From positions 1,024,001 through 1,088,000 of the forward strand of contig OY970166.1 of assembly GCA_963706595.1 (NCBI GenBank): 64,000 nt of DNA, given 5' to 3'. Shown here piece by piece: positions 9,161-58,224 of the stretch. A program made the position numbers and the translations under genes. Numbering within the stretch: the stretch's first letter is position 1; each line of letters begins with the position of its first letter. Source of the stretch: an uncultured cyanobacterium. Lineage in GTDB: Bacteria > Cyanobacteriota > Cyanobacteriia > Cyanobacteriales > Nostocaceae. The notes below the pieces were generated by a model that saw only the letters and a list, made by a program, of their open reading frames with translations, searched no databases and was not told the origin of the DNA.

Positions 9161-9222
9161 TTTAGTACAGGTCGGCGGAAATATAGGAATCCGATTTAAT
9201 TTATGAAACAACCTAAGTACAG

Positions 9223-9304
9223 GTAGGGTGTGTTAGGCGTAAGCCGTAACGCACCGAAGGCCTTGGGGAAGGTGCGTTACGGATTTCATCCTAACGCACC
9301 CTAC
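9223..9304. repeat. GTAG-type REP-like doublet (GTAGGGTG...CACCCTAC)
   Basis: Two inverted palindromic units bounded by GTAG and CTAC. Related copy at 40773-40852. Confidence 0.75.
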
Positions 9305-9517
9305 TGGGGTGACAAGGCTAAAATGTTGCAATAGATTTTTGACAAAATTGAGATAAATCAATGTTTTCTGCTTTTATCTAATGCACTATTTTAAGCTTGT
9401 CAGTCCACTACTGGCGTGGCAAGGCTAAAATGTTGCAATAGATTTTTGAGAAAATTGAGATAAATCAATGTTTTCTGCTTTTTCCTAATGCACTATTTTA
9501 AGCTTGCCACGCCACTA
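9302..9517. mobile_element. two tandem 107-bp IS630-derived MITEs sharing TA junctions
   Basis: TA at 9302, 9409 and 9516 (period 107). Ends match the IS630 TIRs at 40957-42209. Confidence 0.85.
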
Positions 9518-9737
9518 CAATACCTAATCCTGTTCAAAAATCAAATAGTAATCCTATAGGACAACAATTTTAAATCAATAAAAAGCCTATTTATTGTATA
9601 GCAACCGCCAAGGCAATTAGGAGATGACAAAATTACAAACCCCAGTCACAGCCAGCATTTCACTTTTGACTTTTGACTTTTGACTTTTGACTTCCGCCTT
9701 GCGGTACTAGGGGCTAGATGATTGACACCCGAATTAA

Positions 9738-39244: not shown

Positions 39245-40507
39245 GTGGATATCAACTCTTTACTCCAACCCTTTGGGCGTTTCGGCGTTAATTTAGGACT
39301 GTCGCGCATTATCAAACTGTTGGCAAATCTCGGCAACCCTCACCAGCAAGTTCCAGTCATTCATGTTGCCGGCACTAACGGCAAAGGTTCGGTTTGTGCT
39401 TATCTTGACTCTATACTGACTGAGGCTGGTTATCGTACAGGATGTTATACCTCTCCTCATTTAGTCCATTGGACAGAACGCATTAGCATCAACAAACAGC
39501 CAATTTCCTCTGAGGAATTTAGCCAATTAATCTTACAAGTTCAAGACGCTATTCAACCTGATGATGAGTACCCGACTCAGTTTGAAGTGATTACCGCAGC
39601 TGCTTGGTTGTATTTTGCTCAAGCTCAAGTTGATGTGGCTGTGGTAGAGGTGGGTTTAGGCGGGCGCTTGGATGCGACTAATGTTTGTGAGCAGCCGTTA
39701 GTGACAATAGTTACATCAATTAGCCGTGAACACTGGCAGCAATTAGGACCGACTGTAGCTGATATTGCTAGAGAAAAAGCTGGTATTCTGAAATCAGGAT
39801 GTCCGGTGATAGTTGGGCAGTTGCCACCAGAGGCGGAAAATGTGGTGCGATCGCGCGCCCAAGAATTACAATGCTCATATATTAAGCCTCAACCTGCCCA
39901 TCAAATATCTCCCAGATGGGCTGAGTATAAAACTATTAAAAATTCTCACATCCTTAAATATCCTCTACCATTACATGGGCAAATACAATTAACTAATTCT
40001 GCCTTGGCTTTAGCTGCTGTAGAAATTCTCCAAAACACAGGTTGGGAGATTTGTCAAGAGTCCATTGTGAATGGTATGAGCAAAACTCAATGGCCGGGGC
40101 GAATGCAATGGGTGAGTTGGAAACAACAAAAATTATTAATTGATGGCGCTCATAACCCAGCCGCAGCCCACGCACTGCGAGATTATATAGATAGCTTAGA
40201 CACCCCTAAAATAACTTGGGTGATGGGAATGCTTTCTACTAAAGAGCATAAAGATATTTTTCAAGCTTTGTTGCGCTCATCGCATGACCAATTATATCTC
40301 GTCCCAGTACCAGATCACAGTTCAGCCAATCCTCTGGAATTAGCCAAAATAGCTCGTGAAACCTGTCCAGAATTATCAGTGTGTGAAACTCATCCAGATT
40401 TATCATCAGCCCTAGAAGCAGCATTCACTTCCACAAATCATCAAGTTGTTTTGTGTGGTTCCCTTTACCTAATCGGGCATTTTTTCACAACTTTGCCCTC
40501 AAAGTAA
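39245..40507 (+). CDS. folC: folylpolyglutamate/dihydrofolate synthase
   Basis: HVAGTNGKGS, EVGLGGRLDATN, DGAHN, CGSLYL. Confidence 0.95.
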   Translation: MDINSLLQPFGRFGVNLGLSRIIKLLANLGNPHQQVPVIHVAGTNGKGSVCAYLDSILTEAGYRTGCYTSPHLVHWTERISINKQPISSEEFSQLILQVQDAIQPDDEYPTQFEVITAAAWLYFAQAQVDVAVVEVGLGGRLDATNVCEQPLVTIVTSISREHWQQLGPTVADIAREKAGILKSGCPVIVGQLPPEAENVVRSRAQELQCSYIKPQPAHQISPRWAEYKTIKNSHILKYPLPLHGQIQLTNSALALAAVEILQNTGWEICQESIVNGMSKTQWPGRMQWVSWKQQKLLIDGAHNPAAAHALRDYIDSLDTPKITWVMGMLSTKEHKDIFQALLRSSHDQLYLVPVPDHSSANPLELAKIARETCPELSVCETHPDLSSALEAAFTSTNHQVVLCGSLYLIGHFFTTLPSK

Positions 40508-40849
40508 CTTTGAACTCCGGGTTTTACCCCCCTTAATCCCCCCTTGCAAAGGCTACGGTGTACACACAAGTCTTGAATTGTCTGTTGTGTCATAAGACCC
40601 CACCCCTAGCCCCTCCCCGCAAGCGAGGAGGGGAACAAGATTTTTGATTAAATCTGGTTTTTAGGGCTGGAAACTCTCTTTGGGTCAGGATTTGTGTACA
40701 CTGTAGCTTGGAAAGGGGGGAGACCGGAAAATCTAGTTACCTCCCCTTTCCAAGGAACCACCGTGTACGTGTGTAGGGTGTGTTGTCGCGTAGCGCAACG
40801 CACCATCTTCAATTACTGGTGCGTTATGGACGTTAGTCCTAACGCACCC

Positions 40850-40958
40850 TACTAGCGTGGCAAGGCTAAAATGTTGCAATAGATTTTTGAGAAAATTCAG
40901 ATAAATCAATGTTTTCGGCTTTTTCCTAATGCACTACTTTAAGCTTGTCACGCCACTA
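40850..40958. mobile_element. 107-bp IS630-derived MITE at the CTAC end of a REP doublet
   Basis: Same sequence family as 9302-9517. TA junctions at both ends. Confidence 0.85.
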
Positions 40959-42209
40959 CTGGTGTGACAAGCTTAAAATGTTGCATTAGAATGGAGGAAA
41001 AAAAAGGAGAAATTGATGGGGAGAGGTCGGAGAGATAAAGTAATATTAGATACAGAAAAAAGACAAAGATTAGAAGCGATCGCGCGCAACGGATATGCCC
41101 CAGCCAAAAAAATATTGCACGCACAGGTGTTGTTAATGTGCGATGAGGGAGAGGGTGCAACGAAGAAATGGACAGATGAAGAAATAAGTATAGCCTTAAG
41201 GGTTCATCGCAATACGGTGGCAAGAATTAGGAAGAGGTTCCTTGAAAATGGAGAAGAACCTGCCTTAAATCGTTATCAGAGGTTAAAACCACCAAATCCC
41301 AGCAAAATAGATGGTTATACTGAAGCCCAAATCATCGCATTATGTTGTTCTGAACCTCCCACGGGGCAAGCACACTGGAGTCTAAGATTACTGACGCAAG
41401 AAATTCAAAACCGAAAAATTGTCATAGAAATTTCTAGGGAGACGATTAGAAAGACATTAAAAAAAACAAATTACGCCCCTGGAAAACAGAAAGATTTTGT
41501 ATTCCCGAACGGGATATAGCACGTTTTGTCTCTCAAATGGAAGTAGTTTTAGACCTCTACAGCCAAGAACATAGTGATTTGGAACCTTTAATCTGTATGG
41601 ATGAAGCTTCTAGACAATTAACAGGGCATCTTTATGAGCCAAAACCAATGGAACCGGGTGAAGATGCAAAAGAAGATTATCACTATACTCGCGAAGGAGT
41701 CCAAGCTTTGTTCATGTTTTTTGACCCAATCAGAGGTTGGCGACGTGTCAGCAATCGCGCTCATCGGACTCGTGTTGATTGGGCCGAAGAAGTCCGTCAA
41801 CTATTAGATGAAGACTATCCCCAAGCCACCAAGGTCAAATTGCTATGTGACAACCTCAACACTCATAGCATTGCATCGCTTTACGAAACTTTTCCCGCAC
41901 CAGAAGCTCACCGCTTGGCTAGAAGACTTGAGATTTATTACACTCCTCGCAATGGAAGCTGGCTCAATGTTGCCGAGATTGAATTAAGCGTTTTAAGCCA
42001 ACAGTGCCTAGACCGACGAATTCCTAGTATTTGTCAACTATCTACAGAATTGACCGCTTGGCAAAACGAACGTAACCGCACCGCAGGTAAAGTTATTTGG
42101 CGTTTTACTACTGATGATGCTCGTATCAAACTTAAACATCTTTACCCAGTGTTTGAAACTCACAAAATCGTTGATTCTAATGCACTATTTTAAGCTTGCC
42201 ACGCTACTA
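40957..42209 (+). mobile_element. IS630 family insertion sequence (about 1.25 kb, TA target)
   Basis: Imperfect TIRs of about 33 bp (TACTGGTGTGACAAGCTTAAAATGTTGCATTAGAA / TTCTAATGCACTATTTTAAGCTTGCCACGCTACTA) enclosing the transposase. Confidence 0.93.
41016..42193 (+). CDS. IS630 transposase split over two frames, joined by a -1 frameshift at A8 (41459-41466)
   Basis: OrfA HTH (HWSLRLL). The -1 frame reads KKNKLRPW..FCIP..MEVVLDLY into a DDE domain (CMDE, DNLNTH, SWLNVAEIE). Confidence 0.9.
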
Positions 42210-42316
42210 CTGGCGTGACAAGGCTAAAATGTTGCAATAGATTTTTGAGAAAATTGAGATAAATCAATGTTTTCTGCTTTTGCCTAATGCACTACTTTAA
42301 GCTTGCCACGCCACTA
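42208..42316. mobile_element. 107-bp IS630-derived MITE directly downstream of the IS630
   Basis: TA at 42208 and 42315. Same family as the other 107-bp copies. Confidence 0.85.
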
Positions 42317-42381
42317 GACTAAAAACTACTGGACTAAAAACAGAATTTAACCGGAAATCCAGTTCCCCTCCTCGCTTGCGG

Positions 42382-44002
42382 CTATCCATTACCCGCATCT
42401 TTCTTAACAATCCAACAAGATACTTAATATAAAGGGAAAAAGCTTGCTAAGTATAGTGTGGAGAGAACAGAATCGGGTAATGGAATCATGGAAAAGTGGG
42501 CAGCCAAGGAACTGTCTGGGGTAGACCTAGGAGACCTTCGTCGAAACAAGCGGTTAATCAAGATAGTAGAGGACTTAGCCGCACAGCCGGATAGCAGCGT
42601 ACCACAAGCGAGCGGAAATATGGCAGCAACCAAAGCGGCATATAACTTTTGGAAATCACCATATTTTCCCGCCAGTGAAATTCGTCAAGGGCATATAAAT
42701 AGCACAATCGAAAGAATCAAAGAACATCAAATAGTCTTAGCGATTCAAGACACAACAAACATAGATTTAACAGACCACCCCAAAACTAAAGGTGTGGGTT
42801 ATCTTGACCATCGTCAATCATCAGGATTGAAAGTACATTCAACATTTGCTGCCACAAGTAATGGAGTGCCGTTAGGAATTATTGAACAGCAGGTATGGGC
42901 TAGACCACCTGAAAATTTGGGCATAGCGAAAAAACGTCGTCAAAGGGAAACACTTTTAAAAGAAAGTCAGCGCTGGTTAGATGGATTAGAAGTCACACAA
43001 AGCTCAGTCCCATCAGAGATTCAAGTGGTGACAATAGGTGACTCAGAAGCAGACATATTTGACTTATTTAATCTCAAACGTTCAGAAAATTCCCATTTGT
43101 TAATTCGTGGGACTCACAACCGCAAAGTTGACCATTGTGCGAAATATCTACATCTTGCAATCCGCCAAATTGAACCCAATGGAACACTGACAGCAGAGGT
43201 CAAACGCAGTCCAGAACATAGTGCTAGAAAAGCGATACTTACAATTCGATTCACTAGTGTTGATATCCAAGTCCCATTACATCACATCGGGCGTTCACAG
43301 CTAAAACCTGTCAAGTTACAAGTAATTCTGGCATCAGAAGATCATCCACCACCCGGAGTCAATCCTATTAGTTGGTTATTGCTCACCAGCCTTGAGATTC
43401 ATAACTTAGAAGATGCCGCGCGTTGTGTGCAATGGTACACCTATCGTTGGTTGATAGAACGCTATCATTACACTCTAAAGAGTGGGTGTAGAATTGAACA
43501 ATTACAATTGTCCACTGCTGACCGCATCAATATGGCACTAGCCACTTATTCTGTTGTCGCTTGGCGTTTATTATGGCTAACTTACTCCTCACGAGTTCAC
43601 CCTGATTTATCCTCTGATGCTGTTTTAGAAACTGATGAATGGCAATCTTTATGTGCCACTGTCAACAAAAATCCCACCCCACCAAAAAAACCTCCATCTT
43701 TACGAGAAGCGGTGCGAATGATTGCCACTCTCGGCGGCTTTCTGGCTCGCAAGGGAGATGGTGAGCCGGGAGTTAAAACTATTTGGCGGGGTTTACGGCG
43801 ATTACACGATATCGCCGCTACCTGGAAACTTCTCCATTCCCACTCCCCATCTGATGTTTCTGGTTAACGATCGCATCCCAATATAGATATATTCATTTTC
43901 ATGTTTTGTCTAGTTTGTCAACCATCCCCTCTCATGGAAGCTATGTCATCCCCACACAGTCTGCTTTACAGCCATGTTAAGAAAGATGTGGGTAATGGAT
44001 AG
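42382..44002 (+). mobile_element. IS4 family (IS50/Tn5-like) insertion sequence, 1621 bp
   Basis: 28-bp TIRs CTATCCATTACCC(G/A)CATCTTTCTTAACA with 1 mismatch. 10-bp direct repeat TCGCTTGCGG at 42372-42381 and 44003-44012. Confidence 0.95.
42488..43867 (+). CDS. IS4 family transposase
   Basis: LGDLRRNKRL, IQDTT, Y..RW.IERYHYTLKSG (YREK), LGGFLARKGDGEPG. Confidence 0.95.
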   Translation: MEKWAAKELSGVDLGDLRRNKRLIKIVEDLAAQPDSSVPQASGNMAATKAAYNFWKSPYFPASEIRQGHINSTIERIKEHQIVLAIQDTTNIDLTDHPKTKGVGYLDHRQSSGLKVHSTFAATSNGVPLGIIEQQVWARPPENLGIAKKRRQRETLLKESQRWLDGLEVTQSSVPSEIQVVTIGDSEADIFDLFNLKRSENSHLLIRGTHNRKVDHCAKYLHLAIRQIEPNGTLTAEVKRSPEHSARKAILTIRFTSVDIQVPLHHIGRSQLKPVKLQVILASEDHPPPGVNPISWLLLTSLEIHNLEDAARCVQWYTYRWLIERYHYTLKSGCRIEQLQLSTADRINMALATYSVVAWRLLWLTYSSRVHPDLSSDAVLETDEWQSLCATVNKNPTPPKKPPSLREAVRMIATLGGFLARKGDGEPGVKTIWRGLRRLHDIAATWKLLHSHSPSDVSG

Positions 44003-55603: not shown

Positions 55604-55995
55604 ACAGTTGTAAATTTGTACTTATATGAATTTACTCGTTTTTTCTATAAATTCAATACAGCAATTTCCAATTATATAAGGTACTCTTAGCCCCCTCATC
55701 GCTTGCGGGGAGGGGGTTGGGGGTGGGGTTCTTGTACCTCATAACACCGGGAAGTGCTATAAAATAACCCTCTTTTATAACTCTGAAAAAATAAAATATT
55801 CGTAGGTTGGGTTGACGTAAGGAAACCCAACATCATTGGTCGCGTTGGGTTGCGCTGCGCTTAACCCAACCTACGTCTAATACACTACTTTAAGTTTGCC
55901 ACGCCAGTAGAGTAACGCCACAATCCCTGGTTGTGTTGCAATACTACTTCGGTTAAGGGACTTCCAAGAAATAAGATACCCAAGTTTAATGCCTT

Positions 55996-57765: not shown

Positions 57766-57926
57766 AGTATTAAGAAATACATAAGGTCTGTTTTTTTACA
57801 GTCACAAAGACTTTTGATGCTAAACTTAGTCCCCCTCATTGTCACTTGTTTTCGCCAATTGCAAAACTTCTGTATTCAGCATTTATTTATGTTTATGTAC
57901 CAAATTAGTTAGTAGTGCATTAGACG

Positions 57927-58060
57927 TAGTGGCGTGGCAAGCTTAAAATGATGCATTATATTTCTCTTGTGGAACAGGCATCTTGCCTGTTCTGGGCGGG
58001 CTAGAAGCCCACCCCACAATATTTATGCTTATGCACTATTTTAGGCTTGTCAGTCCAGTA
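57927..58060. mobile_element. IS630-type MITE carrying palindromic cargo, inserted at the GTAG of a REP doublet
   Basis: TAGTGGCGTGGCAAGCTTAAAATGATGCATTA left end and TGCACTATTTTAGGCTTGTCAGTCCAGTA right end. Confidence 0.75.
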
Positions 58061-58224
58061 GGTTGGGTTAAGCGCAACACAACCCAACGCGACCAATGAT
58101 GTTGGGTTTCCTAACGTCAACCCAACCTACAATTTTTCGCCTCATTTTAAGCTTGTCACGTCAGTAGAATATTAATATTGATATGGATGATGAGGACTAA
58201 AGTCCTCACTACAAACTTTTAAAC

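Follow-up and report, generated by a model that had tools for sequence, protein, structure and literature searches.

An IS630-type insertion sequence (IS) and three families of MITEs in a cyanobacterial genome probably duplicate the four bases CTAC on insertion. Their preferred sites appear to be the CTAC/GTAG foot of a single REP family and the ends of copies already in place, probably owing to a transposase that would cut with a 4-base stagger and read the adjacent bases. This reading is built on the structure of the elements, their 4-bp direct repeats, their enrichment at REPs, the presence of arrays of mixed haplotypes and a split between CTAG and CTAC/GTAG relatives, all of which were observed directly. 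The window, i.e. the whole stretch of 64,000 nucleotides that was analysed, is part of a single 5.57-Mb contig of genome G000, which to judge by its close relatives is probably that of a filamentous cyanobacterium.

The focal array and its elements

In the window a GTAG-type REP doublet (GTAG-hairpin, linker, hairpin-CTAC; its motif family was counted genome-wide) lies at 40773..40852 on the plus strand, and its final four bases, CTAC at 40849-40852, are the duplicated target. It is followed on the same strand by a family A MITE of 103 bp (40853..40955) with the 27-bp imperfect terminal repeats common to the IS, a CTAC junction (40956..40959), the autonomous IS630-type element of 1,247 bp (40960..42206), a further CTAC junction (42207..42210) and a second family A MITE of 103 bp (42211..42313), of which the haplotype is unlike that of the first (h6 versus h10). 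The first-pass annotation had described this order of REP doublet, MITE, IS630 and MITE with TA at 40850, 40957, 42208 and 42315, and all of it is present. The element sizes of 107, 1,251 and 107 bp had to be corrected to 103, 1,247 and 103 bp, the shared junction being the 4-mer CTAC. At its distal side the array ends in CTAG (42314-42317), and apparent decayed terminal-repeat fragments were read by eye in this region (42314..42345, plus strand). With one mismatch to CTAC, this last junction is an imperfect duplication that may be due to mutation or deletion. When the two flanks of the array were aligned to each other, no meaningful match was obtained. An empty allele of the site was not found in congeners, where the orthologous locus matched the upstream gene region only (query 1-775). 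Between the REP doublet and a gene for a protein with a Mur-ligase fold (39245-40507) lie further palindromic repeats (40540-40772), of a type that also forms the distal flank of two arrays at non-REP sites. An unrelated IS4/Tn5-type transposase of 469 aa is encoded at 42458-43867, 145 bases past the array.

Three other sites in the window carry related elements. A second array (9179..9560, plus strand) has long carrier palindrome arms at both ends, and by eye its flanks match the carrier consensus given by Di Nocera (2013; PMC3733652). It consists of a REP doublet (9223-9304), a family A MITE (9305-9407), CTAC, another family A MITE (9412-9514) and CTAC (9515-9518), the REP doublet and two MITEs being as annotated. 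The insertion at 57926 also exists, and it proved to be a nested one, in which a MITE of a different family entered the REP doublet of a third MITE family, now decayed: a family B MITE of 128 bp (57930-58057), between GTAG copies at 57926-57929 and 58058-58061, lies inside a decayed, REP-carrying family C MITE (57911..58167, minus strand; terminal repeat 58137-58163, REP doublet 58058-58130). Half a family C MITE, flanked by GTAG, is found at 55802..55910 on the plus strand, with its REP doublet at 55802-55874 and one terminal repeat at 55880-55906.

A terminal-repeat profile run over G000 gave 231 matches, which resolved into 100 paired elements and 31 unpaired ends. The paired elements comprised 11 ISs, 74 family A MITEs (103-104 bp, 38 haplotypes) and 15 others, mainly of families B and C, and they were distributed over 53 arrays of one to seven elements: 34 singles, seven arrays of two, five of three, two each of four, five and six, and one of seven. 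The MITEs have no coding frame, occur in many copies and have their ends and target in common with the autonomous IS. Family C (136-185 bp) contains a whole GTAG REP doublet between IS ends; apart from the two cases in the window, examples are found at G000:C1 1351585-1351722, 5023942-5024079 and 3880073-3880208. Its carriers hold 12 of the 93 REP doublets of G000, and two of them have themselves been hit by other insertions. The doublet carried by family B is of the form GTGG...CCAC. At G000:C1 3005245, 3005374 and 3005503 unpaired terminal repeats with a common flank recur at a period of 129 bases.

All 11 full copies of the IS (96-100% identity) are 1,247 bp long, with imperfect 27-bp terminal inverted repeats, both frames intact and a run of eight A residues (A8) at the frame overlap. 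The first frame, orfA (41016..41519, plus strand), encodes 167 aa with helix-turn-helix domains (Pfam HTH_32, HTH_23 and HTH_29), a length kept in all copies. The orfB frame (41459..42193, plus strand) encodes 244 aa with the DDE catalytic domain (Pfam DDE_3; D48, D131 and E173 in orfB numbering), and the right terminal repeat contains its stop codon. In an alignment of 26 sequences D131 and E173 were invariant and D48 nearly so. The A8 run (41459..41466, plus strand) is a candidate -1 shift site, at which orfA and orfB would be joined into a single transposase of about 392 aa; fusions of this type by frameshift have been described for IS630 elements (PMC5009743). The IS630 model NF033545 was the only IS-family model that this transposase matched above the model's own cut-off (orfB 119.2 bits, cut-off 100), whereas orfA alone remained below it with 74.2. 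The AlphaFold2 model of orfB (pLDDT 87) has a DDE/RNase H-like fold. In a fold search with this model Mos1 gave the longest alignments (182 and 203 residues, Z 12.9), and retroviral integrases reached Z 13-14 over about 135 residues, so that Mos1 was not singled out by Z; a search of solved structures by sequence gave nothing real. Cut and paste, as demonstrated for ISY100 (PMC2170065), is the mechanism by which we assume that the fused transposase would mobilise both IS and MITEs. The annotators' proposal that the IS in the array is the likely mobiliser of the MITEs is supported.

With IS630, ISY100 and Mos1 of the IS630/Tc1/mariner family the element shares a transposase with helix-turn-helix and DDE domains, two frames that meet at an A-run, short terminal repeats and a TA in the centre of the target. 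It differs from them in its 4-bp direct repeat, in its use of the non-palindromic CTAC at REP feet instead of CTAG, and in arrays of up to seven elements. The nearest named match is the ISMae29 family (50% aa), and the ISMae29-type copy that was checked had CTAG at both ends.

The target duplication and the REP ends

When each element was defined as running from T to A, the flanking 4-mers were identical at both sides of 80 of the 100 elements in G000 (51 GTAG, 29 CTAC). The 20 that did not match were GTAG/CTAC (seven), CTAC/GTAG (seven) or other combinations (six). Read in the orientation of the element, the flanks of family A were CTAC/CTAC in 34 cases and GTAG/GTAG in 28, and identical MITE haplotypes occurred in both polarities (h2 at three CTAC and two GTAG sites, h1 at two and four, respectively). 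The outer C or G thus tracks the target and not the element, which indicates that CTAC itself is duplicated. The idea that a TA target acquires its C-TA-C context from the ends of the element was wrong, as the outer base belongs to the target. An empty paralogous site with one CTAC was found for 16 of 41 testable arrays with matching ends (at most three mismatches in 24 bases). The same 4-mer was present at both sides of all 11 copies of a related element in genome G093 (eight CTAC or GTAG, two CTAG, one ATAG) and of 14 of the 16 copies in the planctomycete G170 (12 CTAC or GTAG, two CTAG).

In the IS630/Tc1/mariner family the stagger is 2 bp, strictly at TA, and TA is duplicated (PMC2170065, PMC5481204). 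It could be argued that this textbook duplication also applies here and that the element has an outermost base which varies or was converted by repair, in which case the seven GTAG...CTAC elements would simply have G...C ends and a TA repeat. This is very unlikely, since the outer bases of four-fifths of the elements match a direct 4-bp repeat, and one and the same element has ATAG/ATAG as well as CTAG/CTAG flanks. The GTAG...CTAC arrays, for their part, are better explained by loss of the REP doublet: the arms of the carrier palindrome (n = 37) were followed by a GTAG-REP in 21 cases, by a GTAG-repeat in ten and never by GTAC. Elements with mismatched flanks would need a second event, and in the GTAG...CTAC arrays later recombination or adjacent deletion presumably removed the doublet. 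Arrays bounded in this way and devoid of the REP doublet, some of them between both carrier arms, were seen at G000:C1 1207671-1211741, 1281020-1282506 and 223479-223629 and at loci L090, L098, L108 and L109. At one flipped junction (G000:C1 2492307-2492312) the facing ends seem to have swapped their outer bases, as inversion of a junction hairpin would do. In place of the 2-bp TA duplication of the IS630 family, then, a 4-bp direct repeat with a central TA was found, and the element is for this reason classed as an IS630-related variant and not as a plain member. The transposase would likely cut its target with a 4-base stagger and read the bases beside CTAC. With an asymmetric target a 4-bp duplication becomes visible that would escape notice at CTAG sites, so that the cut geometry of the subgroup can be tested directly.

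Of the 231 terminal-repeat matches, 221 have CTAC or GTAG just before them. REP ends were scored with a 9-base motif that had been written after inspection of the insertion flanks, so that the comparison was not blind. The motif was present at 35 of 59 CTAC-side outer array ends versus 265 of 7,386 intergenic CTACs (odds ratio 39, p 2e-34). Both results exceed chance, and the REP targeting put forward in the first-pass annotation is supported; a distribution over arbitrary TA or CTAC sites without REP enrichment was not seen. By eye, about seven of the 24 ends that were off the strict motif are REP variants or lie within doublets; the strict hairpin test overlooked many REP arms with mismatches. 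The targeted family is palindromic with GTAG at its foot and is frequently paired into doublets: 332 ends with the motif and 93 doublets were counted in G000. Of its CACC-type ends 33 of 220 were occupied, versus two of 86 CAAC-type ends. A second GTAG-REP family was avoided, with 192 intergenic ends empty and none occupied (p 2e-8); a degenerate copy at 2623878, which the pattern did not capture, may hold an insertion. No insertions were found in other hairpin-CTAC families of G000 with 49, 50 and 15 copies.

If the enzyme needed CTAC alone, the link with REPs would reflect the survival of intergenic insertions. It is true that 55 of the 59 CTAC-side ends are intergenic, that 24 ends are off the strict motif and that the 84 empty CACC-CTAC sites outside REPs may be mostly coding. 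We consider this extremely unlikely nonetheless, because the enrichment was computed among intergenic CTACs, the other intergenic hairpin-CTAC families are unused, and G170 shows the same pattern at another repeat. A stop-free frame ran across the empty site of two of 53 arrays; in CTAG-type relatives it did so at 12 of 34 sites (p 1.5e-4), and among random CTACs at 1,141 of 2,000. That so few insertions break open frames fits the safe harbour that had been suggested, and this branch of IS630 has likely re-aimed its enzyme at gene-sparing sites. For work with cyanobacteria, an enzyme that inserts at intergenic repeats and can use its site again could provide a means of integration that spares genes.

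Many of the target doublets are located within the long palindrome reported around GTAG-15 dimers (Di Nocera, 2013; PMC3733652). The parts of that report on cyanobacterial GTAG-15 dimers describe no IS or MITE at their ends; the comparison with that report is one of carrier palindromes. The presence of many doublets in this repeated carrier, and of one common flank in several arrays, might mean that REP and MITE spread together as passengers of another carrier and that true insertions are few. Hardly any credence can be given to this, as same-flank sites differ in haplotype and orientation (941494 h6, 1856764 h3, 1917969 h21, 2074017 h0), which points to separate insertions, and empty copies of those targets are present. 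In the cases checked the genealogies of flanks and MITEs disagreed.

A host REP-binding protein, RAYT or other, might instead recruit the transposase, which would then not read the DNA itself. The targeted repeats do differ between hosts (CACC-CTAC versus TGAC-CTAC), Y1 transposase genes occur in both G000 and G170, and the element of G093 is weakly linked to REPs despite an enzyme that is 76% identical. When RAYT genes were sought, however, the targeted repeat lay beside none of the six Y1 genes of G000 and none of the 14 of G170; a cognate gene may have been lost or missed. Moreover, the target word correlates with position in the transposase tree and with 14 diagnostic columns (see below), and the specificity of IS1397 and ISKpn1 is reportedly set by the transposase (PMC1525189). 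Recruitment by a host protein is thus unlikely, and recognition by the transposase is preferred. Mimicry of the element ends by REP ends was also considered and rejected, because the repeat targeted in G170 is unlike the ends of its element.

The element works like the known REP-targeting ISs (IS1397, ISKpn1, ISPsy8, IS621, ISPpu9/10, ISPa11 and ISRm22), most copies of which lie at a fixed point of the REP, and its transposase is not of their families: the survey of Tobes and Pareja (2006; PMC1525189) lists IS3, IS110, IS4, IS256 and IS5, and IS630 is absent. Unlike in those cases the REP tetranucleotide is duplicated here and the hairpin stays intact, so that the site is reusable. An IS110 element is known from REP-like repeats of Anabaena (PMC3184786). 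In the ISPpu9 and ssr9 module, also of the IS110 family, autonomous and small non-autonomous units adjoin in REPs and likely depend on one transposase (PMC12288879). That module has an IS110 recombinase, circular intermediates and a small RNA, whereas the present system has a DDE transposase, its MITEs are bounded by terminal repeats, and its arrays are longer and mixed. The literature search yielded no report of IS630 at REPs or of a 4-bp IS630 duplication; supplements, e.g. the repeat tables of PMC3733652 and PMC3542288, may list such elements.

Growth of the arrays

Adjacent family A MITEs differed in 22 of 24 pairs, by a mean of 6.6 columns as against 6.9 for all pairs. As neighbours are mostly of different haplotypes, the arrays likely grow by insertion at element ends. 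REP-anchored arrays were over-dispersed relative to a Poisson distribution, with two or more elements in 12 (5.0 expected) and three or more in seven (0.31 expected). None of the 11 ISs stood alone (p 0.008) and nine were internal (p 0.025); these p-values are modest and assume independent events. The IS occurred in either orientation within arrays (five versus six), and where MITEs lay on both sides of an IS they were always co-oriented (6/6). An IS that is never alone, mostly internal and placed between co-oriented MITEs fits insertion into existing element junctions. The self-extending arrays by repeated insertion that the annotation had envisaged are in agreement with these observations. 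A five-element array was even found at a non-REP site with empty paralogues; element ends attract insertions also without a REP. Each insertion would leave a CTAC beside a terminal repeat, which would be a better target than an empty REP end and would let the array grow. Insertion beside own ends is also known for IS30 and IS911, which the present element resembles in that its ends apparently act as hot targets and tandem copies result; the IS30 and IS3 families use circular intermediates.

Unequal recombination or local duplication would be a competing origin of the tandem copies. All 31 extra family A MITEs in 16 arrays are co-oriented, which independent insertion alone does not explain, and both identical neighbour pairs have gains or losses of 3 bases at their junctions. 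As a general explanation it is nevertheless most improbable: besides the difference between neighbours, which is about as large as that between MITEs at large, the arrays mix IS, A, B and C elements with the IS in either orientation. Furthermore, where the two ends of an array match, its internal junctions (24 in all) have the same polarity as the outer target in 18 cases, are flipped in two and odd in four, so that movement of ready-made blocks was also minor. Recombination or duplication is disfavoured for most junctions and probably accounts for the two identical pairs. For the co-orientation, loss of perfect palindromes is the preferred explanation, in that inverted neighbours would have been lost or never formed. 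An age gradient along the arrays was looked for by eye and not seen. In the arrays at G000:C1 3574415-3574623 and 3831297-3831505 identical MITE neighbours are bordered by the same pair of odd junctions, with a gain of 3 bases at the first and a loss of 3 at the second. The elements also appear to move and delete REP doublets, which would offer a route of REP turnover without RAYT.

Relatives and the split between CTAC and CTAG

MITE ends in four congeners gave 77 pattern matches, of which the loci were examined for 72. Their CTAC-side outer ends were at the REP motif in 7/7, 8/9, 9/14 and 3/8 cases (the last in G003), i.e. 27 of 38 as a raw count. In G093 two of the 11 copies were at a REP-like repeat, four at MITE ends and five at neither. 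REP targeting is leaky, as the figures for G093 and G003 illustrate. In G170 13 of the 16 copies were at a different GTAG hairpin, which has 32 exact 12-mer matches in 8.4 Mb. Outside G170 three of 20 CTAC-side flanks folded with z below -2; the result of the folding test was driven by this one element, and a hairpin is not a clear requirement. Among 28 CTAC-side loci with matching ends, which are not independent, CACC preceded CTAC in 16 and TGAC in eight (one element). At two loci of G170 (L249 and L251) the flanks of the IS are exact inverted copies over the 30 bases shown, either a real inverted duplication or an assembly artefact.

Relatives of the transposase at E 1e-60 were present in 26 of 151 genomes of the taxonomic family. 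A scan of genome contigs gave at least 510, of which the best 80 were kept. The tree had 81 rows, from which L160-L169 (ten copies of a single element), nine loci that were partial and fragments shorter than 170 aa had been excluded. A branch with 100/99 support separated 50 rows (35 CTAC/GTAG, two CTAG copies of the G170 element and 13 unlabelled) from 31 rows (21 CTAG, nine unlabelled and L031, which was miscalled and had CTAG on inspection). The first side contains Cyanobacteria, Planctomycetota, one acidobacterium and one alphaproteobacterium. The CTAC/GTAG target marks one side of the tree across four phyla, and the CTAG side is without REPs. The CTAC lineage may have arisen by a shift from CTAG to CTAC, a direction that depends on the midpoint root and is not given by it. 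CTAG was present at both sides of 18/18 copies in G135 and of 13 of 17 examined in G139 (for one of which no ends were found). In an IS870 study CTAG was reportedly required as target, and the 4-bp reading may already be on record for IS870-like CTAG elements. In G135 two copies (L064 and L229) form a tandem pair that shares a single CTAG, so that stacking is not unique to the CTAC side.

Fourteen alignment columns separate the two sides of the tree (41 versus 31 rows), including orfB 17-22, A50, H75 and R164-N165. Counted from the first catalytic Asp, and so by spacing alone, A50 and H75 may be near W159 and R186/F187 of Mos1, which is a lead only. These Mos1 residues are among those that contact the target (PMC5481204). 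Sister groups with different target words and a set of diagnostic columns constitute a natural experiment on target change by a DDE enzyme. A wider scenario, which we put forward tentatively and do not hold to be the likelier outcome, is that an old IS630 branch (Cyanobacteria, Planctomycetota, Acidobacteriota and Pseudomonadota) exchanged CTAG for GTAG, the guide word of REPs, by changes at a few residues and re-tunes to the REP family of each host. It would feed itself by the 4-base stagger, its hot ends and REP doublets on MITEs that seed landing sites, and the whole CTAG subgroup might have the same stagger, masked by the symmetry of CTAG. In G151 the REP doublet whose GTAG adjoins the end of a related IS (L056) has an apparent CRISPR array a few hundred bases away.
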